DNA from: Desulfobacca acetoxidans
GTDB taxonomy: Bacteria > Desulfobacterota > Desulfobaccia > Desulfobaccales > 0-14-0-80-60-11
Length of the DNA stretch: 59,490 nucleotides
NCBI GenBank assembly: GCA_020722205.1
Contig: DYLF01000005.1
Span: 1-59,490 of the forward strand
Direction of reading: 5' to 3'
The translations under genes and the position numbers were made by a program. The notes beneath the pieces were generated by a model that searched no databases, had not been told where the DNA came from, and worked only from the letters and a program-made list of their open reading frames with translations. Shown in pieces: positions 4,131-52,950 of the stretch (positions are counted from its first letter, which is position 1; every line of letters starts with the position of its first letter).

Positions 4131-4172
4131 GTTTGGGTTTTTGGGTTCTCGGTTTTGGGTTATGAGGTTATC
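4131..4172. repeat. degenerate 7-nt tandem array (plus strand GTTTGGG TTTTTGG GTTCTCG GTTTTGG GTTATGA GGTTATC)
   Basis: GGG/CGG/AGG followed by TT recurs at 4135, 4143, 4150, 4157 and 4164. On the minus strand this is the A/C-rich 5' leader (AACCCAAAACCGAGAACCCAAAAACCCAAACAT-ATG) of the kinase gene. Confidence 0.55.
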
Positions 4173-4268
4173 TGGGATGCCGACAACCGGCATTTAGCCC
4201 TCACTGGCACGATGAGTGAATCTCACTATTTCCCTCTGGCTTCTCGTTTCTAATCTCCGGACTATAAC

Positions 4269-5744
4269 TTATAGTCTGTTTCCTAATGCCTGTCGCCTGG
4301 CCTCGATGGCACGCTGGTATAGTGCAACGTATTTAGGGGCCACGGCATCCCAGGAGAAATCCAGGGTCATGTTTCGTTTCACCAGGGCCTGCCAGGCAGG
4401 GGGGTCATTATATAGACTCAGGGCCCGGTGCACCGCCGCCAACAGCTCTGCCGGGGTGTAGCTGCTGAATTTGAAGCCGTTGCCGCCACCGGTGTCCGGC
4501 TGATACTCCTGGATGGTTTCATCAAGTCCGCCCGTCGCCCGGACGATGGGCACAGTGCCGTAGCGCAGGCAATAAAGTTGGTCCAGGCCACAGGGTTCAT
4601 AGCGAGAGGGCATGAGGTAGAAGTCGGCCCCGGCGATCAACTGGTGAGCCAGCTCTTCGCTGTACCCCAGGGCCAAACCGATGCAACCCGGGTATTTCAG
4701 GGCGATTTCCTGCAGCAGGTATTGATGCCGTTCTTCGCCGGTGCCTTGCAGGACAAAGCCCACCTGAAGCTGCATCATGTCCTCCAAAATGTTTTCCACC
4801 AGATCAATGCCTTTGCGCTCCACCAGACGGGTGGTCATGCCCACCAACGGGCGCGCCGGAGGCAGATCCATTCCAAAGCGCCGCAACAAATCAATCTTGC
4901 AGGACCGTTTGCCTTCCAGGTTGTCTATGGAATAAGGGCTGGCCAAGAAGGGATCGCGAGCTGGGTCCCAGCGCTCATAGTTGACCCCTTCCAAGATACC
5001 CACCAGCTCTGCCGCCCGCTCCTGAAAGACTCCCTCCAGACCGAAACCGAATTCCGGCTTCATGATTTCTTCCCGGTATTTGGTGCTGACCGTGCTGAGC
5101 AGGTCGGCAAACACCAAGCCCCCTTTCATCAGGTTGATCTTGCCGTAAAATTCCAGGGCCTTGGGCGACAGCAACTCCCATCCCAGGCCGGTAAGAGGCA
5201 GGTCATAGGCAGAGAAGATGCCTTGGTAACCGACGTTATGCACGGTATAGACTACCGGCAGGCGTTGCAGGCGAGGCCGCTCATGGTACAGAGTGCGAAA
5301 ATACACCGGCACCAAGCCGCTCTGCCACTCCTGGCAATGGCAGACGTCCAGGTCAAGTTCCAGGGCCTCAATCATTTCCACCACGGCCCGGCTGAAAAAA
5401 ATAAAGCGTTCGGCATTATCTTCAAAATCACCGTAGAGCGTACCATACAGACCCTCCCGGTTATACAGGGAGTCCTGGCCGACGAAAAAAAACTCCACTC
5501 CGGAGGCCATCTCGGCCCGGTAGATTTCCGCCGGCAGATTTTTCAAGGACAACGGGATGGTCAAAGTAACGCCGGTAGAACATAGAGGCGTTCCCGCCTC
5601 CCTTACCTGCCGGTACAGCGGCAGCACCACCTTGATGTCGTGCCCCAATTTTACCAGCGTTTCGGCCAAATCAGAAATCACTTCCGCCAGCCCACCGGTG
5701 CGGGCGAAAGGATTGGCCTCCGGGGTTACAATCAGAACGCGCAT
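4269..5744 (-). CDS. glgA: glycogen synthase (ADP-glucose type)
   Basis: MRVLIVTPEANPFARTGGLAEV N-terminus (K/RTGGL motif) and GT5-like length. The ATG at 5744 has an AAGGA 8 nt upstream. The ORF track GTG at 5768 is the alternative start. Confidence 0.9.
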   Translation of the reverse strand: MRVLIVTPEANPFARTGGLAEVISDLAETLVKLGHDIKVVLPLYRQVREAGTPLCSTGVTLTIPLSLKNLPAEIYRAEMASGVEFFFVGQDSLYNREGLYGTLYGDFEDNAERFIFFSRAVVEMIEALELDLDVCHCQEWQSGLVPVYFRTLYHERPRLQRLPVVYTVHNVGYQGIFSAYDLPLTGLGWELLSPKALEFYGKINLMKGGLVFADLLSTVSTKYREEIMKPEFGFGLEGVFQERAAELVGILEGVNYERWDPARDPFLASPYSIDNLEGKRSCKIDLLRRFGMDLPPARPLVGMTTRLVERKGIDLVENILEDMMQLQVGFVLQGTGEERHQYLLQEIALKYPGCIGLALGYSEELAHQLIAGADFYLMPSRYEPCGLDQLYCLRYGTVPIVRATGGLDETIQEYQPDTGGGNGFKFSSYTPAELLAAVHRALSLYNDPPAWQALVKRNMTLDFSWDAVAPKYVALYQRAIEARRQALGNRL

Positions 5745-5805
5745 AAAAGGAATCCTTTCCAGACTCACCTCATAGTCCTAAGTCACCTGCTCCAGGTTTC
5801 AGCGC

Positions 5806-6834
5806 TCAAGCTTGATTAGTCGGCTCACGGCTCGCATCCAGTTGCACTTCCCGCAGAAATTGGGCGGCGTCTTCCGGGGGGGTGGGATTGATGTAAAAGC
5901 CCGACCCCCACTCAAAGCCGGCCACCAAGGTGAGCTTTGGCATAATTTCAAAATGCCAGTGATAATAGGGCATCTCTGGCTCCCGAATGGGAGCCGTGTG
6001 CAAAATGAAGTTGTACGGCGCCTTCCCCAGGGATTTCTCCAGCCTCTTCAGAGTTTCGGAAAAGATCTCGGCCAATCGATAGTAGGACTCTGCCTTGAGG
6101 TCGATATAAGAAGAATAATGGGCTTTGGGGAGAATCCACACTTCAAAAGGCGAGCGCGGGGCAAAGGGGCAGATAGCTACAAATTCCTGGTTCTCCAACA
6201 CCACCCGCACCTGCTGTTGCAGTTCCTGCCGTATCATGTCGCAGAAAACGCAGCGCTCCTTCCAGTTGTAATAAAACTTGCTGCCATTGAGTTCTTCCAT
6301 GACCAGCTCCGGCACGATGGGCAAACCGATAAGCTGGCTATGGCTGTGCTCCAAAGAAGCGCCGGCCGACCGCCCCTGGTTTTTAAAAACCAGCACGTAA
6401 CGGAACCGGGGGTCTTCCGCCAGCGCGCGGATGCGGTCGCCATAAGCCCTGAGCACCTCATGAAAACCTTCCAGGGAAATGCTGGCCAGGGTGACATGAT
6501 GATCAGGATTCTCAATGATCACCTCATGAGTGCCGATGCCGTTCATCTTGTCGAACATGCCCTCACCCATGCGATCCGGGTCTCCCTGGAGCACCAAAGC
6601 CGGGAACTTGTTGTTCACCACCCTCAGGCGCCAGCCCGGGCTGTTGGGAGCAGTTCCCGGTTCCCGGTAGGCCAGTATCTCCGGCGGCGTGGTATGTTCG
6701 TTGCCGGGACAAAAAGGGCAGAACCCTCCCCTGGTCACTTCCTCCTCAATCACAAAATCATGGGGCCGCTTGCCCCGTTCCGTGGCAATGATCACCCAGC
6801 GGCCGATGATGGGATCCTTCCGCAACTCCGGCAT
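5806..6834 (-). CDS. galT: GalT-type (HIT superfamily) hexose-1-phosphate nucleotidyltransferase
   Basis: 342 aa with the zinc motif CPFCPGNE and the active-site HSHSQL (HxHxQ) typical of galactose-1-phosphate uridylyltransferase-like enzymes. Confidence 0.8.
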   Translation of the reverse strand: MPELRKDPIIGRWVIIATERGKRPHDFVIEEEVTRGGFCPFCPGNEHTTPPEILAYREPGTAPNSPGWRLRVVNNKFPALVLQGDPDRMGEGMFDKMNGIGTHEVIIENPDHHVTLASISLEGFHEVLRAYGDRIRALAEDPRFRYVLVFKNQGRSAGASLEHSHSQLIGLPIVPELVMEELNGSKFYYNWKERCVFCDMIRQELQQQVRVVLENQEFVAICPFAPRSPFEVWILPKAHYSSYIDLKAESYYRLAEIFSETLKRLEKSLGKAPYNFILHTAPIREPEMPYYHWHFEIMPKLTLVAGFEWGSGFYINPTPPEDAAQFLREVQLDASREPTNQA

Positions 6835-7066
6835 CTACCGTCCCTCGCTCTGATCTGTCAGTTAAATCTTCACCGTGCGATTCTCCGCAGCCGGCTTTTT
6901 GTAAAATTTCTTCCTGCTCTAGAGGAAGAGCCGCAACCTCCCGATTTTCACCAGTATACTTCTCAAGAGAAATTGTGCAAGTAATTTGGCTGACATGGCC
7001 AACAGGTAAGAGCAGGCTCTCCCCCCACCCCCCAAGATGTCCCCCGAGGGTTAAGACCCTCCGATA

Positions 7067-7279
7067 TCAGCGGCGGAACAGGGTAAAAAGCAAAGTTAAT
7101 ACCACACTGAGCACTATACAGGTGCCCAAGGGAAAATAGAAAGTGAAGCGCCCCCGCTGCCAGCTGATGTCTCCAGGCAATTTGCCCAACCAGGGGATCT
7201 TCGGGCCCAGCCACAGGAGCACTCCCAGGCCGACCAAAATCAAACCCATGATCACCAAGAAACGCCCCATCTCAGACAT
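7067..7279 (-). CDS. small membrane protein, DUF2905-like
   Basis: 70 aa with two hydrophobic segments. The PWLGKLPGDISWQRGRFTFYFPL motif is recognised from memory as the DUF2905 family. Confidence 0.6.
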   Translation of the reverse strand: MSEMGRFLVIMGLILVGLGVLLWLGPKIPWLGKLPGDISWQRGRFTFYFPLGTCIVLSVVLTLLFTLFRR

Positions 7280-7408
7280 ACTGCCACCACCTCAAAAAGT
7301 TGTTGCCTACCTTCAATTTAGTGATAATCCGACAGTTTTTCAAGATATTTCCCTACCCCCGGGGCACCTCCCCCCACCCAATTCTTTGACTCAGGCAATT
7401 GTGGATAT

Positions 7409-7475
7409 CCCCTCCGCCGCCAGCAAAGGGCGGGGCAAAATTCTCCTTCTCTGTTGGCGGGGAGGGCGGGGGAGG
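7409..7475. repeat. GC-rich hairpin element (C-rich arm / G-rich arm / GGGGGAGGAAAAAAG tail)
   Basis: CCCCTCCGCCGCCA (7409-7422) is near-complementary to TGGCGGGGAGGG (7455-7466). The tail CGGGGGAGGAAAAAAG resembles the tail of the element at 54552. Confidence 0.4.
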
Positions 7476-7535
7476 AAAAAAGTATTCTTTTACAGGGCCA
7501 CCAATAAGTTAGTCTAAACCTCCAATTGTTATCAG

Positions 7536-8253
7536 TTAATCCTCGGGCTTTAAAGGTTTGACTCCTTGGGGACGGGCGCCGAAAATGGCCGTTCCCACCC
7601 GGATAAGGGTGGCCCCCTCCTGCACGGCCACTTCGAAGTCGGCTGTCATCCCCATGGACAACTCTACGGCGTCGGCCGGCAGGACACCCTGAGCGCGGAG
7701 CTGATCCCTAAGCTCCCGCAAAGCCCGAAAATAAGGGCGCACCTCTTCCGGGGGCAGCCACGGCGGCATGGTCATCAGACCCCGGACCCGGAGATGGGAC
7801 ATCTGAGCAATTTCCTTCAGCAACGTCGGCACTTCAGCCGGGGGGGCCCCGGACTTGGTGTCCTCGGGGGACATCATCACCTGGATAAGGATGTCCTGGA
7901 TTTTCCCCCGCCGGGCGGCGGCGGCCTCCAGGGCCTGAGCCAGTCTGAGGCGGTCCACGCTGTGGATGAGGTGGAAGAGTTCCACCACGGCCTTGGCTTT
8001 TTTGGACTGCAAGTGTCCGATGAAATGCCACCTCAGGTCCGGCCCCAGGGCGACGATCTTGGGCTGGGCTTCTTGGAGATAATTTTCCCCGAACTGACGC
8101 TGGCCGGCAGCCACGGCCTCCCTGAGTCGCTCCACCGGGACAGTTTTGCTCACCGCCACCAGCTGGACACTCTCGGGGTCTCGCCCCACCCGGCGGAGGC
8201 CCAGCCGTCATCCTATGCTTTATGTCCGCAAGGTTTTCAGCCACCTGGCTCAT
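7536..8253 (-). pseudogene. yggS: YggS-family PLP-binding protein with an apparent 1-nt frame disruption near codon 17
   Basis: The frame from ATG 8253 gives MSQVAENLADIKHRMTAG, a YggS N-terminus. The rest (GRDPESVQLVAVSKT...FGENYLQE...) is in another frame, open from GTG 8189 to 7536. Deleting one G/C around 8199-8203 gives a continuous MTAGLRRVGRDPESV. Confidence 0.6.
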
Positions 8254-8286
8254 AAGGCTATTCCATTCTGGTGCGCAGCACGAACC

Positions 8287-9120
8287 TTAAATTGATTTTA
8301 GGCTGCTGACCAATAAGTTATCTCTTATATTGTCTTTTCCCGGTTGACCCTTGCCCACCAGATTGAAGGCCGACAGGGTATTGCCATAGGTCCGATGGGC
8401 AACCTCTTCCAGACTGAGGCCGTGCAGTTTGGCCAGGGTCTGGGCGGTGGCCGTCACATAGGCCGGTTCGTTGCGCTTGCCGCGCCAGGGCTGAGGGGCC
8501 AGATAGGGACAATCCGTCTCCATGAGCACCCTGTCCAAGGGGAGTTGACGGGCTACCTGTCGCAAGGGCTCGGCAGGAGGATAGGTGAGGACGCCGGAGA
8601 AGGACAGATAGAAGCCCAAATCCAGAAAATGGTAAGCTTCCTCAAGGCTGCCGGAAAAACAGTGCATGACCCCGCCGACCAGACGGCTGCTGTAATCCCT
8701 GAGAATCTGCAAGGTGTCGGCCGTGGCCTCCCGGGTGTGCACCACCACCGCCTTTTTGAGGCTGACGGCCCACTCCAGAAACTGCCGGAACCAATAACGC
8801 TGCTCCTCCTCCGGGGAGCGGCGCCGGTAAAAATCCAAGCCGATTTCGCCGATGGCCACCACCCGCTCGTCCAGGGCCACGGGGGCCAGAGCTTCCAGGT
8901 CCCTCGCGGTCAGGGCGGCGACCGCATGGGGGTGCACCCCCACCGCGGCGAAGACTTCGTGATATCTGTGGGCCGTTTCCACTACCTGGTGGGAGTTCTG
9001 AAGGCCGATCCCGATATTAATAATAAGCCCGACCCCGGCCTCTCGGGCACGGTTCACCACTTCCTCCTGATCGGGGCGTAGTTCTGGCTCATCCAAATGA
9101 GCGTGGGAATCAGCCAACAT
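8287..9120 (-). CDS. tatD: TatD-family metal-dependent hydrolase/DNase
   Basis: MLADSHAHLDEPE start (HxH metal site), later HTREA and ETDCPYL motifs, 277 aa. Confidence 0.85.
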   Translation of the reverse strand: MLADSHAHLDEPELRPDQEEVVNRAREAGVGLIINIGIGLQNSHQVVETAHRYHEVFAAVGVHPHAVAALTARDLEALAPVALDERVVAIGEIGLDFYRRRSPEEEQRYWFRQFLEWAVSLKKAVVVHTREATADTLQILRDYSSRLVGGVMHCFSGSLEEAYHFLDLGFYLSFSGVLTYPPAEPLRQVARQLPLDRVLMETDCPYLAPQPWRGKRNEPAYVTATAQTLAKLHGLSLEEVAHRTYGNTLSAFNLVGKGQPGKDNIRDNLLVSSLKSI

Positions 9121-9282
9121 AGGACGTGAGCTGTGGGCGGTAAGCCGCTAAAGATATCTTATTGCTTATATGGATTGGTGGTTATTTCTTCCAATTCGCC
9201 TCTGAGTCAGGGTAATTAAAATGATTTCCTCTTGACCAGAAAGATTTGGGAAATAAACTGTCTGTATAAATATACCCCAAAT

Positions 9283-9310
9283 CACTGACCACTGGCCACT
9301 GATTACTAAC
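9283..9310. repeat. 7-nt tandem array CACTGAC CACTGGC CACTGAT TACTAAC
   Basis: CACTG/TACTA starts at 9283, 9290, 9297 and 9304, an exact period of 7, in the divergent tatD / 9378 intergenic region. Confidence 0.7.
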
Positions 9311-9377
9311 TTCTCTGGACGGATCAAGTCCTGCATGGTAAAATACCGGAAATTTCGCCAACCTGCAAGGAGCGGCG

Positions 9378-10211
9378 GTGAACGCCTGGATGATTAATGT
9401 TCTTTTAGGATTCTGCGTTCTTTGCTGGCCTGCTACTGGAGCCGCAGAGGGTTGGAGACACAGCGCTCCCCAGTGGCATACCTTGAGCAGGGGTCTTAGT
9501 TTTACTGAAACTCAGGTCTGGTTAAATGAAGAGCCGGTGGAACAGCTGGCTGTGGTCAAGATCGACCCCCACGCCAATTACTTTCGGGTGTTTCACCATG
9601 CTCCTCAGAGCATCGTTGACTGGCAGAAAGAACTGGGAGCAACGGTGGTGTTTAATGCCAGTTATTTCTGCCCAGGTGGCAAGCCATGCGGTCTGATCAT
9701 TGCCGACGGCCGGCCGCTGGGCCCACTGAAAAACCCACAGATGCGAGGGATGTTCGTAGCGGAGCCCAAGGGAATGTCGCCGGACCTGCCCCGGGCCACC
9801 ATCCTGGATCTGCGCCTCAACCCTGTAACCTTAAGCAATTTTCCCTGGAACCAGGGGGTGCAGTCCTATCCGCTGCTCCTGGATTATAAAGGCCGCATCC
9901 GGGTGGCCAGCAGCCGGAAGACGGCCCAGCGCACCGTGGTTGCCGCCGACCGCAACAGCAATATCCTGGTGTTCAACACCAGACAGTCTTATTTCACCCT
10001 CTACCAATTGGCCCGTTTTCTCAAGACCAGCGCTTTTGAGATCGACAGCGCCCTCAATCTGGACGGCGGCACCGAAGCTCAGCTTTTTATCAAGAGCGGC
10101 GAGTTCGAATATTTTTCTCCGCCGGGCTGGCACTCAGCCATGTATGATTTGCTTACACATCAAAAATTTTGGCTGACCACCGTTATTGGCGTGTTTCCCC
10201 GGCAGGAATAA
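9378..10211 (+). CDS. secreted phosphodiester glycosidase-like protein (DUF2233-like)
   Basis: N-terminal signal peptide (VLLGFCVLCWPATGAAEG). NASYF...GLIIADGR...QSYPLLL...RTVVAADRN...ALNLDGG pattern recalled as DUF2233/NAGPA-like. GTG start; an alternative ATG is at 9390. Confidence 0.55.
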   Translation: MNAWMINVLLGFCVLCWPATGAAEGWRHSAPQWHTLSRGLSFTETQVWLNEEPVEQLAVVKIDPHANYFRVFHHAPQSIVDWQKELGATVVFNASYFCPGGKPCGLIIADGRPLGPLKNPQMRGMFVAEPKGMSPDLPRATILDLRLNPVTLSNFPWNQGVQSYPLLLDYKGRIRVASSRKTAQRTVVAADRNSNILVFNTRQSYFTLYQLARFLKTSAFEIDSALNLDGGTEAQLFIKSGEFEYFSPPGWHSAMYDLLTHQKFWLTTVIGVFPRQE

Positions 10212-10219
10212 AAAAAAGG

Positions 10220-10247
10220 CGAAAATCAACGGGCAAGAGGCAAAAAA
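10220..10247. repeat. 7-nt tandem array CGAAAAT CAACGGG CAAGAGG CAAAAAA
   Basis: C followed by A-rich units at 10220, 10227, 10234 and 10241, directly after the stop codon at 10211. Confidence 0.6.
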
Positions 10248-10364
10248 TTTAAATTCTGCCATTTGGGGTTGCCATCCTTGGTAAAGATAAGTCAGCGACA
10301 AATGTTCCGTCAACTCTACGGCAGGATCCTTTAAGCTAAAATTCAGACGGAAAACCGAAGATCA

Positions 10365-12119: not shown

Positions 12120-12122
12120 ACG

Positions 12123-25093: not shown

Positions 25094-25094
25094 G

Positions 25095-25115
25095 GACCGG
25101 AGACCGGAGACCGGG
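25095..25115. repeat. 7-nt tandem repeat GACCGGA GACCGGA GACCGGG
   Basis: Three units starting 2 nt after the rplL stop, in the 65-nt rplL-rpoB spacer. Confidence 0.7.
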
Positions 25116-29316: not shown

Positions 29317-29396
29317 TGAGACCATGCCGCCAGTGACCACTGGCCGGCAATGGCGGCTGGCGGTTATTGGCTGTCGCCTTCTACAGGATACAAGAT

Positions 29397-34136: not shown

Positions 34137-34153
34137 GGATTGTCGGTTGCGGA

Positions 34154-34202
34154 CTGGGAATTGGTGCTTTCCAACTCCCAACTCCCGATTCTCAATTCCC
34201 AG
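34154..34202 (+). promoter_or_regulatory. intercistronic hairpin in the rpsL-rpsG spacer (possible S7 autoregulatory site)
   Basis: A perfect 10-bp inverted repeat, CTGGGAATTG (34154-63) / CAATTCCCAG (34193-202), encloses the heptamer array CCAACTC CCAACTC CCGATTC TCAATTC (34171-98). It ends 19 nt before the rpsG ATG. Confidence 0.35.
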
Positions 34203-38367: not shown

Positions 38368-38394
38368 GTTTTCGTTTCTATTTTTCGGTTTTCA
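38367..38394. repeat. T-rich degenerate 7-nt array GGTTTTC GTTTCTA TTTTTCG GTTTTCA
   Basis: Begins at the last base of the rpsJ stop codon. It is an imperfect reverse complement of the CAGAAAA array at 38438. Confidence 0.6.
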
Positions 38395-38437
38395 GTCGAA
38401 TATGAAGACACCACGGCTTGCTTCCCTCACTGAAATG

Positions 38438-40890: not shown

Positions 40891-40961
40891 TAATTTCGCC
40901 TTTTGGTTCAACGACGGCATTCTGCTTTGACACAGCTGACAATATTTAACTACATCAAAAA

Positions 40962-40984
40962 CAGAGAAACAGAGAACAGAATAA
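40962..40984. repeat. A-rich tandem units CAGAGAAA CAGAGAA CAGAATA
   Basis: CAG at 40962, 40970 and 40977 in the 104-nt rplB-rpsS spacer. Confidence 0.55.
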
Positions 40985-42323: not shown

Positions 42324-42408
42324 GAAGCGAGTTTTTAAAGGGCCGGCGCCGTAAAGGAAATGATCTTGTCATAATACCGAAAAAACAGAAAACAGCAATC
42401 GGATAGCT

Positions 42409-44157: not shown

Positions 44158-44754
44158 TTGAAACCGAAAACCGAAAGCCCAAAAAGCAAAAACGAAAATG
44201 GCGCGGCAAAGGTCACCCCGCGTTTGAAGCAATATTACCACCAGGAAGTGGTCCCCCGCTTGATGCAGGAGTTTCGCTACCAGAGCCCCATGCAGGCTCC
44301 TCGCCTGGAAAAAATTGTCATTAACTTGGGGCTGGGGGAGGCCATCCAGAACATCAAACTCCTGGAGTCCGCCGCCCAGGAACTGAGCCTCATCTCCGGT
44401 CAGAAGGCGGTGGTCACCCGGGCCCGGCAGTCCATCGCCGCTTTCAAACTGCGGGAAGGCATGCCCATCGGATGCATGGTCACTCTGCGCCGATACCGTA
44501 TGTATGATTTCTATGACAAGTTGGTGAACGTCGTCCTGCCGCGCGTGCGGGACTTCCGGGGCGTTACCGACCGCTCCTTCGACGGCCGGGGCAATTATAC
44601 CCTGGGTATTAAAGAACAGATTATCTTCCCGGAAATTGATTACGACAAGGTCGATAAAATTAAAGGCATGAACATTACCATTGTAACCACCGCCCCCACG
44701 GATGAGGAGGGCAAACGCTTACTCTCCCTTTTAGGGATGCCCTTCAGGAGATAG
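44158..44754 (+). CDS. rplE: 50S ribosomal protein L5
   Basis: The core [40 protein letters not shown] is L5. The TTG at 44158 has a GAGG SD 6 nt upstream, but its first 14 codons are a heptamer array. The in-frame TTG at 44224 would give a canonical-length (176-aa) L5. Confidence 0.9.
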
Positions 44755-45360: not shown

Positions 45361-45369
45361 GGACTTGCT

Positions 45370-46374: not shown

Positions 46375-46382
46375 GAAAGCTG

Positions 46383-46454
46383 TCAGTTATCAGCCGTCAG
46401 CTATCAGCTTACACTTTCTTTGTTAGCGCTGATTACTGAAAACTGACGGCTGAT
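46383..46454. repeat. inverted pair of 7-nt arrays, (TCAGNNN)x4 and (NNNCTGA)x4, forming a long hairpin
   Basis: TCAG at 46383, 46390, 46397 and 46404. CTGA at 46429, 46436, 46443 and 46450. A perfect 12-bp stem, ATCAGCCGTCAG (46389-400) / CTGACGGCTGAT (46443-454), plus an inner ATCAGC/GCTGAT stem. Confidence 0.85.
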
Positions 46455-46474
46455 CGCCAAAATCGGAGGTAAGC

Positions 46475-46975
46475 TTGTTCGACACTGAGGAGCCGGAAGT
46501 TCAGTTAATTGACAAAGTGGTGAGCATTAATCGCGTTGCCAAGGTGGTAAAAGGCGGCCGCCGCTTTCGCTTCAGCGCCATCGCCGTGGTGGGCGATGGG
46601 GCCGGCAGGGTGGGAGCCGGACTGGGCAAAGCACATGAAGTGCCCGAGGCCATTCGCAAGGCCATGGAGAAAGCCAAGAAAGCCATGATTCAGATCCCCC
46701 TGATAGATAACACTATCCCCTACGCCGTCCAGGGTGAGTTCGGCTCCGGCAAGGTCCTCCTCCGCCCAGCGGCCGAGGGCACCGGCGTTATTGCCGGCGG
46801 ACCCGTACGGGCGGTGGTGGAAGTGGCAGGCATTAAAAACGTCCTCACCAAGTGCCTGGGCTCTCATAACCCACACAATGCCGTCAAGGCCACCATGGCG
46901 GCTCTGAAACAACTGGCCAGCCCCGAAGCCGTGGCCCAGAGACGCCAACGCCCTCTGGCGGAGCTGGTGGGCTAG
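46475..46975 (+). CDS. rpsE: 30S ribosomal protein S5
   Basis: TTG start 5 nt after [32 protein letters not shown] is the S5 signature. Confidence 0.97.
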
Positions 46976-47034
46976 CAACCATTGGAAGCGGTTACTAATC
47001 CCGCCCAAACAATAGAAAGCTGGAAGTGATAACC

Positions 47035-47241
47035 ATGATTCTGGAAATCACCCTGACCAAAAGCCCGGCCGGACGGGTGCCTAAGCATCGCCGCACCATC
47101 CAGGCCCTGGGCCTCACCCGTCTCAATAAAACCGTGCGGCTCCCTGACAACCCGGCGATCCGGGGTATGCTGCGTCAGGTGGGTTACTTGCTCACCATCC
47201 GGTCAGTCCCCGCAGGAGATACTGGACATGTCTCTCGATAA
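47035..47241 (+). CDS. rpmD: 50S ribosomal protein L30
   Basis: MILEITLTKSPAGRVPKHRRTIQALGLTRLNKTV...NPAIRGML. The ATG at 47035 lies 8 nt after GGAAG. The ORF track GTG at 47026 is the alternative. The 3' end overlaps rplO. Confidence 0.92.
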   Translation: MILEITLTKSPAGRVPKHRRTIQALGLTRLNKTVRLPDNPAIRGMLRQVGYLLTIRSVPAGDTGHVSR

Positions 47242-47671
47242 CCTCTTCCCTCATCCGGGTTCTCGCCGCCAAGCCCGACGCCTTGGCCGGGGGCCTGGCT
47301 CCGGCTCCGGCAAAACCGCCGCCCGGGGCCATAAAGGACAGAAATCCCGTGCCGGCGGCGGGGTCAAACCGGGATTCGAAGGAGGGCAGATGCCCCTCAC
47401 TCGACGCCTCCCCAAACGCGGCTTCACCAATAAAGTGTTTAAAAAAGAGTGGCTCATCGTCAATCTGAGAGATCTGCACCGATTTCCCGCTGACAGTGTG
47501 GTGGACGAGAAAGCTCTGCGACAAGCCGGACTGGTGAAAGGGCAAGTTAAAAATATCAAACTCTTGGGCCTGGGTGAAGTTACCAACGCCTTGACCGTGC
47601 GCCTGCCAGCCGTCAGTGCACAGGCCAGAAAACGTTTGGAGGCCGCCGGCGGCCGCGTGGAGGTCCTCTAA
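47228..47671 (+). CDS. rplO: 50S ribosomal protein L15
   Basis: MSLDNL.PHPGSRRQARRLGRGPGSGSGKTAARGHKGQKSR. Confidence 0.97.
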   Translation: MSLDNLFPHPGSRRQARRLGRGPGSGSGKTAARGHKGQKSRAGGGVKPGFEGGQMPLTRRLPKRGFTNKVFKKEWLIVNLRDLHRFPADSVVDEKALRQAGLVKGQVKNIKLLGLGEVTNALTVRLPAVSAQARKRLEAAGGRVEVL

Positions 47672-48982
<1,311 letters not shown>

Positions 48983-49119
48983 CAAAATGAGTTTTGGCTT
49001 CCGGGTTATAAAAATATTTCGGCTGGCAACCGGCCTGGTTAACTGACTGCGCGTGGCTGTGTCTTGGAGGACCACCTGCCACAAATGGTTTGCAGAAGAT
49101 TCCTTTAGCAAATTGATAG

Positions 49120-49161
49120 CTGAAACCTGAAACTTGCAAGATCAAACCGAAAATCTAAAAC
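49120..49161. repeat. 7-nt tandem array CTGAAAC CTGAAAC TTGCAAG ATCAAAC CGAAAAT CTAAAAC
   Basis: Six consecutive units in the 197-nt secY-adk spacer, ending 6 nt before the GAGGAGG SD of adk. Confidence 0.75.
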
Positions 49162-49179
49162 CCACTTGAGGAGGCTGCT

Positions 49180-49830
49180 ATGAACCTGATCCTGTTGGGT
49201 GGTCCCGGAGCCGGCAAAGGCACCCAGGCAAAAAAACTTATCGACAAGTACCAAATCCCTCAAATTTCCACCGGCGATATCCTCCGGGCGGCAGTGAAAG
49301 AGGGCACTCCCATGGGCAAAAAAGCCAAGGAATTCATGGATGCCGGTAAACTGGTGCCCGATGAGGTGGTCATCGGCATCATCAAAGACCGCTTGGCGCA
49401 ACCGGACTGCAAAAAGGGCTTCATCCTGGACGGCTTCCCCCGCACCGTCCCACAGGCCGAAGCCCTGGACAAGGTCCTCGCCGGTCTGGGCACCAAACTC
49501 GATCATGTCGTGAGCATCGACGTCCCTGAGGAAGACCTGGTGACCCGCCTTTGCGGACGCCGCACCTGTAAAAACCCCGACTGCGGCCAGATGTATCATA
49601 TTAAATACACCCCGCCCAAAAAAGAGGGCATCTGCGACAAATGCGGCTCCGAACTCTATCAGCGGGATGACGACAACGAAACCACGGTGCGCTCTCGCTT
49701 GGCCACTTACAACCAGGCCACCCGGCCTCTTATTGACTACTATCGCGCCAAAGGTCTGGTGCGCCCCATCGCCGGAGTAGGCAGCATCGATAACATCTTC
49801 AACAAAATCGTAGGAATCTTGGGGAATTGA
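49180..49830 (+). CDS. adk: adenylate kinase (zinc-lid type)
   Basis: GGPGAGKGTQ P-loop and lid cysteines CGRRTCKNPDCG...CDKCG. Confidence 0.97.
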   Translation: MNLILLGGPGAGKGTQAKKLIDKYQIPQISTGDILRAAVKEGTPMGKKAKEFMDAGKLVPDEVVIGIIKDRLAQPDCKKGFILDGFPRTVPQAEALDKVLAGLGTKLDHVVSIDVPEEDLVTRLCGRRTCKNPDCGQMYHIKYTPPKKEGICDKCGSELYQRDDDNETTVRSRLATYNQATRPLIDYYRAKGLVRPIAGVGSIDNIFNKIVGILGN

Positions 49831-49837
49831 ACCAACC

Positions 49838-49898
49838 TCAGCTATCAGCCCGCAGTCTCAGCAAAACCGCTGACTGCTAAAGGCTGATAGCTGACTGC
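49838..49898. repeat. inverted 7-nt arrays (CAG-phased / GCT-phased) forming a compound hairpin
   Basis: CAG at 49839, 49846 and 49853. GCT at 49869, 49876, 49883 and 49890 (GCC at 49897). A 13-bp stem, TCAGCTATCAGCC (49838-50) / GGCTGATAGCTGA (49882-94), with inner GCAGT/ACTGC and CAGC/GCTG pairs and loop AAAACC. Confidence 0.85.
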
Positions 49899-49903
49899 CA
49901 AAT

Positions 49904-50650
49904 ATGATTTTACTTAAATCCCCCCAGGAAATCGCCAAGATGGAAAAGGCCAACCGTTATGTGGCGGAAATCCTGGCGGAAATTAAAGAAAGAATTCGAC
50001 CCGGAATGGAGACCCGGGAACTGGACGTCATAGCCGAAGAGGGGTGCCGTCGCCGACAGGTAAAACCAGCCTTCAAGGGCTACCGCAATTTTCCTGCCTG
50101 CATCTGTGTATCCGTGAATGAGGAAGTGGTCCACGGCATCCCAGGCCACCGCCGACTCAAAGAGGGCGATCTGGTCAGCCTGGATTTTGGAGTGCAATGC
50201 GACGGCTTCTTTGGGGACGCCGCCATCACCGTGGCCGTGGGAGAAGTCAGCTCACAGGCCCGACGGCTGATGCGGGCTACTGAAGAATCACTCTATGCCG
50301 CCATCAATCAGGTAAAAGCAGGCGAGCGGCTGTCCAACCTCTCTCATGCCACCCAAAAAGTGGTGGAGGATTACGGGTTTGCCGTCATCCGACAATTCGT
50401 GGGGCACGGCATCGGCCGCTCCCTCCATGAGGACCCACAGTTGCCCAATTTCGGCCCCCCCGGTCGGGGACCCATCATGCAAGTGGGCCTCACCTTGGCC
50501 ATCGAACCCATGACCAGTGCCGGCTCCTGGCAGGTGCGCATCCTCAAGGACGGCTGGACCGCAGTAACCAAAGACGGCAGCTTGTCAGCACACTTTGAAC
50601 ACACTGTCGCCTTAACTGAGAAGGGTGTCTTGATTTTATCTAAATTATAA
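49904..50650 (+). CDS. map: type I methionine aminopeptidase
   Basis: 248 aa with metal-ligand contexts (DLVSLDFG, FVGHGIG, LAIEPM, FEHTV). Confidence 0.96.
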   Translation: MILLKSPQEIAKMEKANRYVAEILAEIKERIRPGMETRELDVIAEEGCRRRQVKPAFKGYRNFPACICVSVNEEVVHGIPGHRRLKEGDLVSLDFGVQCDGFFGDAAITVAVGEVSSQARRLMRATEESLYAAINQVKAGERLSNLSHATQKVVEDYGFAVIRQFVGHGIGRSLHEDPQLPNFGPPGRGPIMQVGLTLAIEPMTSAGSWQVRILKDGWTAVTKDGSLSAHFEHTVALTEKGVLILSKL

Positions 50651-50824
50651 ATTATCATAAAAGTTTAAAGAAAAGGATTTTCATGCCCTACCAGCTCCTA
50701 AATATTGCTGCTTTGTTTCGTTTGATTAATCCAGTTTCTCGCCTTACCCCCGGGACACTATCATCTCCTGGGGAATTACCCTCTTTTCACGGTCAACAGC
50801 TCAAGGATCACCACTACAGACCGA

Positions 50825-51043
50825 ATGCCTAAAGAAGACGCCATAGAAATGGAAGGGAGGGTCATCGAACCTCTCCCCAACGCCATGTTCCGGGTGGAAC
50901 TGAACAGCGGCCACAGGGTCCTGGCTCACATCTCCGGTAAGATGCGTATGCACTACATCAAAATCCTGCCCGGAGACAAGGTCATCGTGGCTCTTTCTCC
51001 CTACGATCTCAGCCGAGGACGCATCATTTACCGCATCAAGTAG
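50825..51043 (+). CDS. infA: translation initiation factor IF-1
   Basis: 72 aa. [49 protein letters not shown]. Confidence 0.97.
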
Positions 51044-51051
51044 GTGCTGTT

Positions 51052-51165
51052 ATGAAAGTACGACCATCTGTCAAGCGCATCTGTGCCAAGTGTAAGATTA
51101 TCCGCCGCAAAGGCGTAGTGCGGGTAATCTGTGAAAATCCCAAGCATAAACAAAGACAGGGTTAA
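51052..51165 (+). CDS. rpmJ: 50S ribosomal protein L36
   Basis: Not in the ORF track (37 aa). [37 protein letters not shown]. Confidence 0.93.
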
Positions 51166-51183
51166 CTACGGAGGACTTTTAGA

Positions 51184-51558
51184 TTGGCCAGGATCGCCGG
51201 CATTGATTTGCCACGTCAAAAGCGCATCGACATCGCTCTTACCTATATCTACGGTATAGGCCGCAGCAGCGCCGCCAAGCTCCTGCAAGAGGCCGGGGTG
51301 GAGGGCGGCATCAAAACCGCCGACCTCACCGATGCTCAAATTACCAGCATCCGCCAGGTCATCGACTCCCATTACAAGGTGGAAGGGGACCTCAGGCGGG
51401 AAATCTCCATGAACATCAAACGCCTGATGGACCTCGGGTGCTATCGCGGCCTGAGACACCGGCGCGGCCTGCCGGTACGCGGCCAACGCACCCACACCAA
51501 CGCCCGCACCCGCAAAGGCCCCCGGCGCTCCGCCGTCGGCAGACGCAAAAAGTCCTAA
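51184..51558 (+). CDS. rpsM: 30S ribosomal protein S13
   Basis: TTG start. [26 protein letters not shown]. Confidence 0.97.
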
Positions 51559-51564
51559 GGAGGA

Positions 51565-51960
51565 ATGATGGCCAAGAGATCAACTGCTGGTAAAAAGAAA
51601 AAAGAACGCAAAAATATCCCCGTGGGCCTGGCCCATATCAAAGCCACTTTTAACAATACCCTGATCACTATCACCGACCCCGCCGGCAACGTCATCTCCT
51701 GGTCCTCGGCTGGTGTTCAGGGATTTAAAGGCTCCCGCAAAGGCACACCCTTCGCCGCCCAACTGGCGGCCCAGGATGCCGCTAAAAAAGCCATGGAACA
51801 CGGCGTCCGCAACATCGACGTTTATGTCAAAGGCCCCGGCGCCGGACGCGAGGCCGCTCTCCGCGCCCTCCAGGCCGCCGGCCTATCCGTCAACCTCATC
51901 CGGGATGTCAGCCCCATCCCTCACAATGGCTGTCGTCCCCCAAAAAGAAGACGCGTCTAA
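51565..51960 (+). CDS. rpsK: 30S ribosomal protein S11
   Basis: [30 protein letters not shown]. Tandem ATGs at 51565 and 51568 just after AAGGAGG. Confidence 0.97.
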
Positions 51961-51977
51961 CATAAAGGAGAATTACT

Positions 51978-52604
51978 GTGGCCAGATACACCGATGCCAG
52001 GTGCCGTCTTTGCCGCCGCGAAAAAACTGCTCTCTATCTGAAAGGCGACCGCTGTTATACCGATAAATGCGCCATGCAACGCCGCAGTTACCCACCAGGT
52101 CAACACGGCCAGGGGCGAAGTAAGATCTCTGATTACGGCTTGCAACTCCGCGAAAAACAACGCGTCAAGCGCATGTACGGCCTGCTGGAAAACCAATTCC
52201 GCAGCTACTTCCATCGGGCAGAACGGCAAAAAGGCGTCACCGGCACCAACCTCTTGACACTTCTGGAAAGACGGCTGGATAATGTGGTCTACCGCCTCGG
52301 GTTCGCCAACTCCCGCAACCAAGCCCGACAACTGGTGCGCCACAACCACATCCTGGTGGACGGACAGACAGTCAATCTGCCCTCCTTTCTGGTGAAAATC
52401 GGCCAAACTATTCAGGTCTCTGACAAAAGCAAAAACCTGCCCCTGATCCAGGATGCCCTGGAAGCCGCCGCTCGTCGTGGCTGCCCCCAGTGGCTCGAAC
52501 TAAACAAGGAAGAAGCCAAAGGACGGGTGGTCATGTCCCCCAGCCGCGACGACATCACCATGCCCATCCAGGAACACCTCATCGTCGAATTGTATTCCAA
52601 ATAG
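51978..52604 (+). CDS. rpsD: 30S ribosomal protein S4
   Basis: GTG start. [31 protein letters not shown] (zinc-type S4) and an S4 RNA-binding domain. Confidence 0.97.
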
Positions 52605-52722
52605 CTCGGAGGGTTATCAGCTTTTAATCATGATGATCTTTTCACCGTCATCTCCCTATACCTGAAAAGAATAAGCCTGATTCAAAGGAAAATATATCAC
52701 CGCTCGCCACAGCTTGTTATCT

Positions 52723-52777
52723 CCTCTCCCCCAACAGCCGGGCCTAGAGCCCCCGGGAGAGGGTTAGTTTGAGGGGG
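52723..52777. repeat. GC-rich hairpin element CCTCTCCC...GGGAGAGG + GTTAGTTTGAGGGGG tail
   Basis: An 8-bp stem at 52723-30 / 52755-62 with an inner GGGC/GCCC pair, and a G-rich tail to 52777. It lies in the 351-nt rpsD-rpoA spacer. Confidence 0.55.
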
Positions 52778-52915
52778 CCCTGGATTTTTATACAATTATC
52801 GATAATAAGCCATCCAATATGAGCTTTCGACCTGTCTGCAAGCTGAACCAATCTCAGCCGCAGACACCCCTGAGGGGGAAATATCAACCTCCTGACGGGA
52901 AAATAGAGCTTATCG

Positions 52916-52950
52916 CTTAATGCTCACACCTTAATGCTTACTAGCTTGAG
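52916..52950. repeat. 7-nt tandem array CTTAATG CTCACAC CTTAATG CTTACTA GCTTGAG
   Basis: CTTAATGCT recurs at 52916 and 52930 (14 nt apart). The array runs into the GAGGAG SD of rpoA. Confidence 0.6.

Follow-up and report, generated by a model that had tools for sequence, protein, structure and literature searches.

Heptanucleotide tandem arrays in the intergenic spacers of a Desulfobaccales-like ribosomal-protein region

Tandem arrays of seven-base units form a known class of bacterial repeats, earlier described from cyanobacteria, Geobacter, Xanthomonas and Beggiatoa. In Geobacter, GGACCGG elements and pairs of MTYCTGA heptamer elements were reported (Aklujkar, 2009; PMC2700814), and a further precedent of the same kind is available (PMC4692102). 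TAACTGA heptamer repeats occur 5´ of fusA, L3, S4 and S1 inside ribosomal-protein operons (MacGregor, 2015; PMC4679880), which contradicts the original prediction for the present DNA, where no description of such arrays in these operons was known. The idea that heptamer arrays change by replication slippage is due to Mrazek (2007), as relayed in passages of PMC4679880 and PMC4692102. In Nostoc, heptamer repeats are reported to affect expression (Pradhan, 2022).

Here, we analyse a stretch of 59,490 nucleotides (the window), that is, 59 kb of the source genome, and, in relatives, ribosomal-protein-operon loci only. The window, from a sulfate-reducer-like bacterium, is Desulfobaccales-like, with Desulfobaccales MAGs as its best relatives; its rpoC is unsplit, and a sigma-54 activator is encoded. 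The likeness of its arrays to cyanobacterial STRR repeats, noted at the outset, is thus found in a non-cyanobacterium.

Period-7 signal in the spacers

A period-7 excess far above chance and limited to non-coding DNA is present in the window. After curation of the gene map, 45 spacers of 30 nt or more remained, 6520 nt in total. Pooled, they have a self-match of 0.295 at lag 7; the value for 500 dinucleotide shuffles is 0.257 (z = 6.75). Elevation is also seen at lag 14 (z = 4.84), the remaining non-triplet lags all stay below |z| 2.3, and coding DNA has no signal at lag 7 (self-match 0.244). A lag-3 excess was also seen, and the spacer set therefore contains residual coding sequence. When the best 21-nt window of each spacer was compared with 400 shuffles, lag 7 was significant (p ≤ 0.01) in 12 of the 45 spacers (starting at 1641, 4129, 9121, 25094, 29317, 34137, 38368, 42324, 44067, 46375, 48983 and 49831) and any other lag in 0–2. 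TRF assigned period 7 to 10 of its 36 rows for the window, and the unannotated 11% of the window holds 14 of the 23 period-7 arrays counted window-wide. The arrays are thus real, non-random and mostly non-coding, as anticipated.

Table 1. Arrays and related stretches in the window (strand "." as reported)
Position	Strand	Feature and setting	Support
1660..1693	-	AAAGTCT AAAGTCC AAGGTCA AAGGGAA (+ strand letters), histidine kinase/response-regulator spacer; adjoins regulator's ribosome-binding site on its upstream side	spacer 1641-1776, lag-7 p=0.0025
4132..4164	-	TTTGGGT-type (mRNA sense CCCAAAA-type); directly 5´ of GAF histidine kinase start codon; lacks an inverted partner, unpaired in fold	TRF period 7, 4.1 copies; p=0.0025
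9283..9314	.	CACTGAC CACTGGC CACTGAT TACTAAC; divergent spacer, tatD(-)/NAGPA-domain gene(+)	TRF; p=0.0025
10215..10247	+	Weak A-rich period-7-like stretch, GGCGAAA ATCAACG GGCAAGA GGCAAAA	p=0.11, not significant; absent from TRF output
25094..25114	+	GGACCGG-type x3; begins at rplL stop codon	TRF 100%; p=0.005
29329..29371	+	rpoB-rpoC spacer hairpin, CCAGTGA/CCACTGG-type arms; period-7 signal extends to 29378	p=0.01
34137..34164	+	rpsL-rpsG spacer hairpin 5´ arm, GGATTGT CGGTTGC GGACTGG GAATTGG; directly past rpsL stop codon; pairs with 34171-34198	fold
34171..34201	+	rpsL-rpsG spacer 3´ arm, CCAACTC x4.4; stops 20 nt 5´ of rpsG start codon	TRF; p=0.0025
38368..38395	+	rpsJ-rplC spacer 5´ arm, GTTTTCG TTTCTAT TTTTCGG TTTTCAG; begins on first base past rpsJ stop codon	
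38438..38466	+	rpsJ-rplC spacer 3´ arm, perfect (CAGAAAA)x4; stops 11 nt 5´ of rplC ATG (38478), immediately before GGAG	TRF 100%, score 58; 21/21 lag-7 matches
40959..40980	+	AAACAGAG / AACAGAA repeat, period 8 to 7, 5´ of rpsS ribosome-binding site	TRF period 8; lag 7 not significant
42373..42398	+	CGAAAAA ACAGAAA ACAGCAA, upstream of rplP	p=0.0025
44161..44198	+	AAACCGA-type period-7 stretch, probably coding	TRF; in-frame ORF
46378..46409	+	rplR-rpsE hairpin 5´ arm, TCAGTTA TCAGCCG TCAGCTA TCAGC	TRF; inverted repeat I3
46429..46457	+	rplR-rpsE hairpin 3´ arm, CTGATTA CTGAAAA CTGACGG CTGATCG	
49114..49161	+	CTGAAAC-type, 5´ of adk ribosome-binding site	p=0.0025
49838..49863	+	adk-map hairpin 5´ arm, TCAGCTA TCAGCCC GCAGTCT CAGC	
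49869..49896	+	adk-map hairpin 3´ arm, GCTGACT GCTAAAG GCTGATA GCTGACT	
52908..52942	+	Degenerate GCTTAnn x5, adjoins rpoA ribosome-binding site upstream	marginal, p=0.04

Eleven examples had been listed in the original prediction. Nine of these belong to spacers that are significant on their own (4131, 9283, 25095, 34171, 38438, 44158, 46383, 49120 and 49869), the one at 10220 does not reach significance, and the one at 52916 is marginal and better read in the GCTTAnn register. Arrays absent from that list are located at 1660-1693, 29351-29378, 38368-38395, 42373-42398, 46429-46457 and 49838-49863. Many arrays abut the ribosome-binding site, as stated there.

The array at 44158 is a case apart. 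It lies in frame within an ORF that opens at TTG 44158, is preceded by AGGAAAAGAGG, and appears to extend ribosomal protein L5 at its N-terminus by a K/P/E-rich segment. At the same place, L5 of relatives is extended in frame by K/A/E-rich segments. Because it is in frame in this probable extension, the array is itself probably coding, and the argument that a period of 7 is incompatible with coding fails at this site. Along with the lag-3 excess and the weak cases at 10220 and 52916, it is among the points in favour of chance low-complexity or unrecognised coding sequence. For the whole set, this explanation is refuted by the shuffle tests, the specificity for period 7 and the arrays in relatives, and we consider its probability close to nil.

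Inverted pairs and predicted folds

Two arrays of one unit family in opposite orientation make the spacer an imperfect palindrome. The expectation that such pairs form long hairpins is borne out for adk-map (RNA fold z = −8.29 against shuffled sequence), rplR-rpsE (z = −4.46) and rpoB-rpoC (z = −2.68). Full-length hairpins are also predicted for rpsL-rpsG (z = −1.1) and rpsJ-rplC (z = −1.0), but these are no better than shuffled sequence. The same applies to the GGACCGG array at 25094 (z = −0.57), which may have a C-rich degenerate partner at about 25136-25153, and several arrays in the window are partnerless. In relatives, fold z is −11.4 in locus L108 and −9.1 in L004. Of 582 spacers, 104 exceed the 95% shuffle level for hairpins, 50 of these with periodic arms.

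The roles suggested in the original prediction (RNA processing or stability elements, A-rich translation enhancers, or sites for a repeat-binding protein) are candidates, and our tests gave no positive indication that pairing, or the RNA in general, is under selection. Mismatches in aligned stems are equally often G.T (118) and A.C (120), so a sense-strand G.U excess is absent, and variant units in one arm are not matched by the mirror variant in the other (Stouffer Z 1.09, n = 40). The word TCAGCTATCAGCCGTCAGC from the rplR-rpsE 5´ arm recurs in 12 loci, and the dispersed TCAGC-type word has 27 matches versus 0.45 expected, one of them in the adk-map 5´ arm; a single word of this type is spread over several orders. 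Its retention across orders at rplR-rpsE, where the hairpin with a shared 14-mer is kept in genomes with SecY only ~69% identical, argues for constraint beyond a purely neutral model.

This conserved hairpin could also be taken to speak for specific autoregulatory or attenuator RNAs, i.e., ribosomal-protein binding sites or terminators/antiterminators. The rpsL-rpsG and rplL-rpoB spacers of E. coli are known regulatory or processing regions and provide a precedent. As a general explanation, such RNAs are largely refuted by the Rfam, terminator and dispersal evidence and are highly improbable: the spacer structures match no Rfam family even at E ≤ 1, terminator-like sites are not in excess and no reported + strand site falls inside a heptamer hairpin, arrays also occur outside the operon (1660, 4132, 9283), the TCAGC-type word sits at different spacers in different genomes, and the insertions are mostly lineage-specific.

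Gain in single lineages and origin of the elements

The period-7 excess is also present in relatives, where it is stronger (lag-7 z up to 12.6) and the architecture is cleaner. Their loci (2.2 Mb) hold 134 period-7 arrays, statistically non-independent as they come from related genomes, versus 4–23 at periods 5, 8, 10 and 11. As read from these loci, the full element runs from the stop codon through a 5´ array of 3–5 heptamers, a loop and a 3´ array of 3–5 reverse-complement heptamers to the Shine-Dalgarno site and the start codon. Stems are up to 31–38 bp long, the 5´ arrays begin 0–12 nt past the stop codon, and the 3´ arrays finish 11–23 nt ahead of the start. The rpsJ-rplC spacers of L001 and L002 share architecture and unit (GTTTTCC x4) with the window, and the L002 spacer and the array at 38438 share 97% identity over 38 nt.

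Comparison of orthologous spacers further shows the elements to be lineage-specific gains in spacers otherwise 8–20 nt long. Inserts of 90–200 nt occur in single lineages in spacers that measure 8–20 nt in most relatives. The rplB-rpsS spacer is 104 nt in the window versus 5–11 nt in six relatives, the secY-adk spacer 197 nt versus 13–20 nt in six relatives, and the infA-rpmJ and rpmJ-rpsM spacers are long in L001 only. Arrays are missing from many close relatives that have this operon too, and no essential regulator of these genes can therefore need them.

Spacers that are tight unless they carry an element would fit non-autonomous mobile elements (foldback, MITE or REPIN-like) moved by an enzyme whose gene lies elsewhere in the genome, with heptamer subrepeats as terminal inverted repeats and stop-codon-proximal sites as targets. 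This would also suit the single unit family that fills 5–10 spacers per genome in L001, L003 and L108, the L001 copy with a gene (PF05635) between its arms, the weak likeness of the loops in two L001 copies, and the constant G-rich polarity of the 5´ arm in L108. We nevertheless find it rather unlikely. No target-site duplication, transposase or conserved termini beyond the repeats were found in any locus examined, most loops are unrelated, arm length and the order of units vary freely, which would not be expected of copies from a single master element, and partnerless single arrays are common.

The original prediction of one window-wide family gives way to several unit families (C-N-GAAAA, TCAGCnn/GCTGAnn, CCACTGG, GGACCGG, CCAACTC, GGGTTTT and GCTTAnn), with the period kept while the units differ, as it had proposed. 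Unrelated families coexist within one genome and even one operon. Sequence comparison also shows that families are common to different spacers of one genome and to orthologous spacers of different genomes: units are shared at a rate of 13.6% in the first case and 16.4% in the second, versus a background of 4.2% (permutation p ≤ 0.0005). For example, the CCACTGG family is common to 9283..9314, 29329..29371 and L004, L001 has GCTGAnn arrays in its adk-map spacer, and the array at 52908..52942 resembles the dominant family of L001.

Units combine a conserved core with variable positions (TCAG-NNN, GCTGA-NN), and mismatches cluster by position within the unit (z = 10.8). One possibility, to which we assign a minor share, is that the arrays are bound by an oligomeric protein that recognises DNA or RNA in steps of 7 nt per subunit, inverted pairs being two oppositely oriented site arrays and no hairpin. 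The protein could act on DNA (IHF/HU-like or another global regulator, as proposed for Geobacter) or on RNA, for which S1, a cold-shock protein or CsrA has been proposed in Beggiatoaceae and a ring protein similar to HutP would be a further candidate. HutP-like ring proteins read triplets at 7-nt spacing. Consistent with binding are the unit structure, unit sharing within genomes, the unmirrored arm variants expected if arms are read separately, and the TCAG/CTGA-anchored heptamer common to the orders studied here, Geobacter class 3 sites, Beggiatoaceae and cyanobacteria, as well as the Nostoc expression effects (Pradhan, 2022). However, slippage copying of variant units also yields clustering by position, the many unrelated families per genome or operon would need many binders, within the window, the arrays have no associated candidate protein, and close relatives lack arrays in the same operon.

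On balance, the elements are probably heptanucleotide SSRs of the STRR or "long SSR" kind: slippage-driven, dispersing palindromes, tolerated where they separate a stop codon from a ribosome-binding site, and present in the transcript as intercistronic stem-loops. Each element is a short tandem array of 3–5 seven-base units, very often paired with an array of the same family in opposite orientation. Replication slippage in 7-nt steps could lengthen, shorten and homogenise arrays, and copying through recombination or some mobility could spread them into new spacers. They would persist only where harmless, in the very gap that separates a stop codon from the ribosome-binding site after it. On transcription in the polycistronic mRNA, they would fold into stem-loops between cistrons and not cover the Shine-Dalgarno site. 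If they have an effect, it most likely concerns the processing or stabilisation of the mRNA, comparable to that of REP elements or the intercistronic sites of phage T7, because the 31–38 bp duplexes of the clean copies in relatives are long enough to serve as RNase III substrates or 3´-exonuclease blocks. The copies in the window are degenerate and look like old, decaying insertions, and the lone A-rich arrays beside a Shine-Dalgarno site (38438, 42373, 49114, 4132) may be surviving 3´ arms.

Comparison with known repeat systems

In conclusion, the arrays of the window are a new lineage of an already known class of heptamer repeats. They are the same in kind as cyanobacterial STRR, from which they differ in host, as the heptanucleotide "long SSRs", and as the Geobacter elements. 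The inverted arrays are of the same kind as the inverted GGGAATC pairs of Xanthomonas, and the location within ribosomal-protein operons is that of the TAACTGA repeats in Beggiatoaceae. The array at 25094..25114, which fits the pattern (GGACCGG)3 at 2 mismatches with 0 such matches expected, has the same unit as the Gmet_H4 elements of Geobacter metallireducens. The TCAG/CTGA anchor seen here across orders recurs in Geobacter class 3 sites and in the TAACTGA repeats of Beggiatoaceae and cyanobacteria.

Heptanucleotide arrays in the spacers of the window

The spacers of the window contain tandem arrays that belong to the class of heptanucleotide simple sequence repeats (STRR-like or long SSR), and the original prediction was right that they are real. 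A curated gene map including rpmG, rpmJ, the small toxin-antitoxin genes and a DUF2905 gene left 45 spacers with a length of 30 nt or more (6520 nt altogether). Their pooled self-match of bases 7 nt apart was 0.295, and 500 shuffles that preserve dinucleotides gave 0.257 (z=6.75). Lag 14 followed (z=4.84), these two being the only non-triplet peaks. Lag 3 was raised in the same set (z=4.8), so that the set still includes some small coding sequences that lack annotation, or starts that are misplaced, and the remaining lags were unremarkable. The window has several long unannotated stretches (see table). Coding sequence of the window gave the triplet series only, with lag 7 at background level. 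When spacers were scored one by one (best 21-nt window), 12 of the 45 reached p<=0.01 at lag 7 vs 0-2 at the other lags between 4 and 11. Chance and low complexity are thus ruled out by the shuffles, both pooled and per spacer. Of 36 rows from Tandem Repeats Finder, 10 have period 7, among them a perfect (CAGAAAA)x4 at 38438, and together with the lag peaks this gives a unit of exactly 7 nt with copies arranged head-to-tail. Across the whole window, 14 of 23 period-7 arrays fall in the 11% that is unannotated as genes. Nine of the eleven arrays originally listed lie in significant spacers; the one at 52916 is marginal, with a better register as GCTTAnn x5 from 52908, and the one at 10220 is not significant. 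Rather than the single family envisaged, several unit families are present.

Another of these arrays, at 44158, had been taken as non-coding. It is probably coding, because it is in frame within an ORF that starts at TTG 44158 and has a good ribosome-binding site, and because relatives carry a K/A/E-rich N-terminal extension of L5 exactly where the array sits. In L5 of this clade, an extension of this composition is variable and of low complexity, its length ranging between about 20 and over 100 residues. Relatives have it starting at the stop codon of rplX (MAEK...), and the version in the window is short. The rplX-rplE "spacer" of relatives, considered as non-coding, thus turned out to be coding; it was left out of the orientation test only and is still counted in the relatives' lag-7 z, array-position, unit-sharing and G.T/A.C mismatch sets below.

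SecY of the window is 85% identical to that of a "Deltaproteobacteria" MAG and 80-81% identical to those of Desulfobacca and Desulfobaccales MAGs. As SecY is closest to Desulfobaccales MAGs, the source is, on sequence affinity, a Desulfobaccales-like member of the Thermodesulfobacteriota and not a cyanobacterium. This affinity, the presence of a sigma-54 activator and the unsplit rpoC exclude STRR in the strict sense, which requires a (heterocystous) cyanobacterial host.

Other features of the window are listed in the table. The identity of the two tuf copies within unrelated flanks suggests gene conversion, or possibly assembly collapse. Sigma-70-like promoter matches number 21 in 36000-55000 vs 8.8 +/- 2.6 in shuffles, and include TTGACA-18-GATAAT within rpsD (52254) and others in the fusA-tuf and rpsD-rpoA spacers. 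The latter spacer is 351 nt long vs 29-140 nt in Desulfobaccales relatives.

Location and composition of features in the window and in loci of relatives (L numbers)
Feature	Location	Description
Miscellaneous genes	window 1-19.3 kb	thymidylate kinase, response regulator, GAF histidine kinase, glycogen synthase, galT, yggS, tatD, sigma-54 activator, others
Long unannotated stretches	window, including 7171-7535, 15708-16063, 17165-17561
tRNA cluster	window, between the 19.3-kb miscellaneous region and the tuf block
Contiguous block	window, 3' of the tRNA cluster, to rplQ at 54370	tuf-rpmG-secE-nusG-rplKAJL-rpoBC-rpsLG-fusA-tuf-S10-spc-alpha
tuf copies	window 20370-21563, 36854-38047	100% identity across 1194 nt; flanks unrelated
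GGACCGG units	window 25094-25114	3 units directly after rplL TAA
rpoB-rpoC arms		CCAGTGA / CCACTGG
rpsL-rpsG arms		GGATTGT-type, then CCAACTC
rpsJ-rplC arms		GTTTTCN x4 directly 3' of the stop codon; CAGAAAA x4 ending 11 nt 5' of the rplC start
rplR-rpsE arms		TCAGnnn x4, then nnnCTGA x4
adk-map arms		TCAGCnn, then GCTGAnn
Partnerless arrays	window 1660, 4132, 9283, 42373, 49114
L5 extension	window 44158-44754; rplX-rplE region of L002, L003, L004, L006, L009, L010, L012
rpsD-rpoA spacer	window 52605-52955	G+C-rich hairpin at ~52722-52768, besides a weak GCTTAnn array
1024-aa ORF and small gene pairs	window 54677-58706, immediately 3' of rplQ	ResIII helicase and RE_endonuc domains; 3' of it, within the same interval, two HicA/HicB-like small gene pairs, identified by translation only
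L108 palindrome operon	3578-15560 of metagenome contig JFJP01022119.1	spc/alpha operon
23S_rRNA_IVP gene	L001 2032-2479	PF05635, four-helix-bundle, Avd-like; between rplW and rplB
CGCAAAGG-like repeat	L003 192-279, 3281-3400, 6256-6362, 10040-10218; L009 2415-2513	period 8-9

Inverted pairs between stop codon and ribosome-binding site

Several window spacers consist of inverted pairs of heptamer arrays, alongside which the Shine-Dalgarno sites are kept, and further arrays have no partner. Predicted RNA folds are significantly better than those of shuffles for adk-map (z=-8.3), rplR-rpsE (z=-4.5) and rpoB-rpoC (z=-2.7). Full-length hairpins are also predicted for rpsL-rpsG and rpsJ-rplC, yet with z of about -1 they are at chance level, and the fold of rplL-rpoB is not significant against shuffles.

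For relatives, 80 loci were taken from genomes at secY and 80 from metagenomes at rplE, and the operon genes in them were modelled by tblastn; the gene models are approximate and the sample covers ribosomal-protein-operon neighbourhoods only. Many of them exceed the window in the lag-7 signal of operon spacers, with z of 12.6 (L001), 11.8 (L004), 10.2 (L002), 9.0 (L015), 8.2 (L048), 8.1 (L044), 7.3 (L016) and 6.9 (a Binatia MAG), and in some, e.g., L005, L008, L012 and L025, the operon spacers have no such excess. In 161 loci (2.2 Mb), where arrays of related genomes are not independent, 134 arrays of score >=10 have period 7, compared with 4, 23, 8 and 8 at periods 5, 8, 10 and 11, and with 63, 63 and 34 at periods 6, 9 and 12, which are compatible with coding.

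Heptamer elements often occur as inverted pairs placed exactly between stop codon and ribosome-binding site. In clean copies from relatives, the stop codon is followed by 3-5 heptamers, a short loop, 3-5 reverse-complement heptamers, a Shine-Dalgarno sequence and the start codon. The window and the 80 genome loci together have 95 arrays in operon spacers; most 5' arrays start 0-12 nt past the stop codon, and most 3' arrays end 11-23 nt ahead of the start codon. This architecture is found in ribosomal-protein-operon spacers of many Thermodesulfobacteriota (Desulfobacterota-type) MAGs and some Binatia MAGs. Very clean palindromes occur in L108, L004 and L001. In the L108 operon, at least 10 spacers hold palindromes of (AAGTGAG)n/(CTCACTT)n that are nearly perfect, one with a 31-bp perfect stem (z=-11.4), and the upstream stop codon often lies within the first heptamer unit. 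In L004, rpsE-rpmD forms a predicted 38-bp stem with three mismatches (z=-9.1).

Some further observations concern these loci. The L108 copy located 3' of rplQ is followed by a T-run and is terminator-like. In L001, a 23S_rRNA_IVP gene is flanked by inverted AAGCTTn heptamer arrays; such genes were rejected as general cargo, this being the one case in 81 sequences (80 genome loci and the window). Another dispersed spacer repeat, made of CGCAAAGG-like units, is present in several L003 spacers and in L009.

Gain, spread and possible role of the elements

Heptamer elements are gains that were added to a tight ancestral operon lineage by lineage, because orthologous spacers are 8-20 nt in most Desulfobaccales relatives; in single lineages the same spacers carry elements of 90-200 nt. 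Thus, rplB-rpsS and secY-adk are long in the window only, infA-rpmJ and rpmJ-rpsM in L001 only, and rpmC-rpsQ in L002-L004. Two other public contigs (L081 and L082) encode an Adk protein identical to that of the window. Both cover adk-map; of secY-adk, L082 has the whole spacer and L081 the last 70 nt. In these overlaps the spacers are identical to those of the window, so this strain comparison holds no copy-number information. A metagenome scan for closer relatives gave a best L5 identity of 87%.

Within genomes, unit families have spread. A unit is shared between spacers of one genome in 13.6% of cases vs 4.2% between genomes, an approximately 3-fold difference (permutation p<=0.0005), and in 16.4% at orthologous spacers. 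In each of L108, L001 and L003, one unit is found at 4-10 spacers; for the source of the window, dispersal is judged from 59 kb only. One of the main rival explanations is a foldback or MITE-like mobile element. The elements are inverted pairs that recur within a genome, and no transposase was found in the loci examined. The L001 copies align with each other in their arms and only weakly in their loops, and homology of whole elements among them was therefore rejected.

In our view, slippage in steps of 7 nt probably drives the turnover of the arrays, which may also be copied between spacers. They are probably transcribed and would then fold into intercistronic stem-loops and, by analogy, long clean stems might be RNase III substrates or exonuclease blocks. 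The window copies would be decayed versions. The other main rival is a protein stepping in 7-nt units that recognises the arrays. Mismatches cluster by position within units (z=10.8), but this is a hint only, because slippage that copies variant units yields the same pattern. The observation that fits a purely neutral slippage model least well is a conserved TCAGC word, TCAGCTATCAGCCGTCAGC, with 27 occurrences (<=3 mismatches) in 12 loci vs 0.45 expected. It is found at rplR-rpsE, rpsE-rpmD, adk-map and rplF-rplR, and its hosts are Desulfobaccales and Syntrophobacterales-like MAGs, the SecY of the latter being only about 69% identical.

The pairs were also analysed for traces of function at the RNA level. 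In stems aligned so that no mismatch type was favoured, G.T (118) and A.C (120) oppositions were equal, giving no sense-strand G.U tolerance, and RNA-level selection was rejected as far as it would appear in this asymmetry. A mirror test for compensated unit variants between arms was negative (Stouffer Z 1.09, 40 pairs). The arms behave as two independent arrays of one unit family that can pair in any register. Relative to transcription, TCAG-type and G-rich arrays tend to form the 5' arm and CTGA-type and C-rich arrays the 3' arm, with p=0.026 for the TCAG/CTGA order and p=0.0009 for keto-richness of the 5' arm; the orientation counts fall to 11 vs 5 when each unit family is counted once. This rule was discarded as evidence for RNA function, because an inverted pair is identical from either strand and its polarity therefore uninformative. 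Rfam at the gathering threshold gave only tRNAs, and at E<=1 no family in any spacer; known ribosomal-protein leaders and Rfam cis-regulatory RNAs are ruled out by the absence of covariance-model matches. Intrinsic terminators, defined by a G+C-rich stem and, on the sense strand, a T-run after it, were likewise rejected, as terminator-like sites are in no excess (33 vs 28.3 expected) and none of the + strand sites lies inside a heptamer hairpin.

One improbable alternative to slippage relics is that the arrays are the footprint of a dedicated machinery, common to many lineages, that produces or reads steps of 7 nt. This could be a conserved oligomeric binder, or an enzyme adding G/T-rich heptamers to 3' ends, in which case two arrays would meet head to head. 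Such machinery would account for the TCAG/CTGA-anchored unit common to Desulfobaccales, Syntrophobacterales-like MAGs, Geobacter, Beggiatoaceae and cyanobacteria, for the tendency of the G-rich arm to the 5' position on both strands, and for the way in which one unit family can sweep through the spacers of a single genome.

The window on its own adds little because its copies are degenerate, and the comparison with relatives is more useful. Because the flanking genes are universal and alignable, ribosomal-protein operons lend themselves, as a natural series, to the dating of gains and losses, to tests of slippage and to the search for a co-occurring protein. Desulfobacca acetoxidans is a cultured organism, which would make mapping of RNA ends feasible.

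Relation to described heptamer repeats

Bacterial heptamer repeats have been on record since 1990, and to our knowledge nobody can account for the period of 7 or for their role. STRR were first reported in Calothrix PCC 7601. The L044 unit TGACCAA is the reverse complement of STRR2, TTGGTCA. REP, BIME and REPIN elements and RNase III intercistronic hairpins may be regarded as functional analogues, being palindromes in co-transcribed spacers that form stem-loops in mRNA. REP elements confer stability on upstream mRNA, and RNase III acts on long duplexes. However, REP arms are not heptamer arrays, and REP or REPIN are recognised by association with a RAYT (Y1 transposase) gene and by conserved REP sequence heads.

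Heptanucleotides are the most abundant long simple repeats in prokaryotes, where they are the dominant non-triplet length, intergenic and phylogenetically patchy, and polymerase slippage has been suggested (Mrazek et al., 2007, as summarised in PMC4679880 and PMC4692102). The period spectrum is like that found here; the work, as summarised there, is statistical and without the palindromic stop-to-Shine-Dalgarno architecture. For STRR, three heptamers are described in Calothrix according to the same summaries. The predicted likeness to cyanobacterial STRR and Nostoc repeats was borne out: 7-nt units, several per genome, in tandem, mostly intergenic, in operons and near start codons. The function of the cyanobacterial repeats is not known; in Nostoc, reporter expression changes upon deletion of heptamer repeats, the binding partner not being known (Pradhan, 2022). 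In contrast to STRR, the arrays here are in a Desulfobaccales-like host, short (3-5 units) and degenerate, and mostly form inverted pairs filling the gap from stop codon to Shine-Dalgarno; paired repeats are reported as few in Nostoc (PMC4692102).

The original prediction knew of no such arrays in ribosomal-protein operons. This was wrong: among the heptamer repeats already reported from Beggiatoaceae, Geobacter, Xanthomonas and Nostoc, those of Beggiatoaceae are TAACTGA repeats immediately 5' of start codons, including in ribosomal-protein operons and upstream of L3 (MacGregor, 2015; PMC4679880). The position upstream of L3 is that of the window array at 38438, and units carry stop codons in both systems. 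The TAACTGA system (Beggiatoaceae, cyanobacteria and Bacteroidetes) differs in having one exact unit, arranged as direct repeats with a single indirect exception, and in usually standing in for the ribosome-binding site, which the window keeps (PMC4679880). (TAACTGA)3 with <=3 mismatches had no match on either strand of the window; a single TCAGTTA, at 46383, is the reverse complement of that unit. In Xanthomonas, 70-75 convergent inverted pairs of GGGAATC arrays per genome lie near ORF ends, intergenic, transcribed and capable of forming stem-loops, with the type kept between species while the length varies (Rehm, 2015; PMC4692102). The convergent order matches the polarity of the pairs described here, but Xanthomonas has one family of G-quadruplex-forming G-rich units, whereas window units are mostly not G-tracts.

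The closest host lineage is Geobacter. The described elements of Geobacter metallireducens comprise 49 Gmet_H4 copies of four GGACCGG heptamers, many of which begin at a stop codon and come in pairs of a (+) and then a (-) copy (Aklujkar, 2009; PMC2700814). All pairs examined from the table of that paper have this order, which is the polarity of the pairs described here. Its class 3 consists of paired sites of five MTYCTGA heptamers on opposite strands between cistrons, e.g., proB-proA, and thus of TCAG...CTGA-type inverted arrays as in the window. Those families are described there as highly uniform and read as sites of global regulators (IHF/HU) or as regulatory RNAs, whereas here there are many families with degenerate copies. 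Compared with the Gmet_H4 pattern of four tandem GGACCGG-like units after a stop codon with an A-rich tail, often in (+)/(-) pairs, the window has three units with two mismatches, without the A-rich tail, and with a degenerate partner arm and a fold that is not significant. Taken together, the window arrays are best filed as a new lineage of an already described class of repeats.
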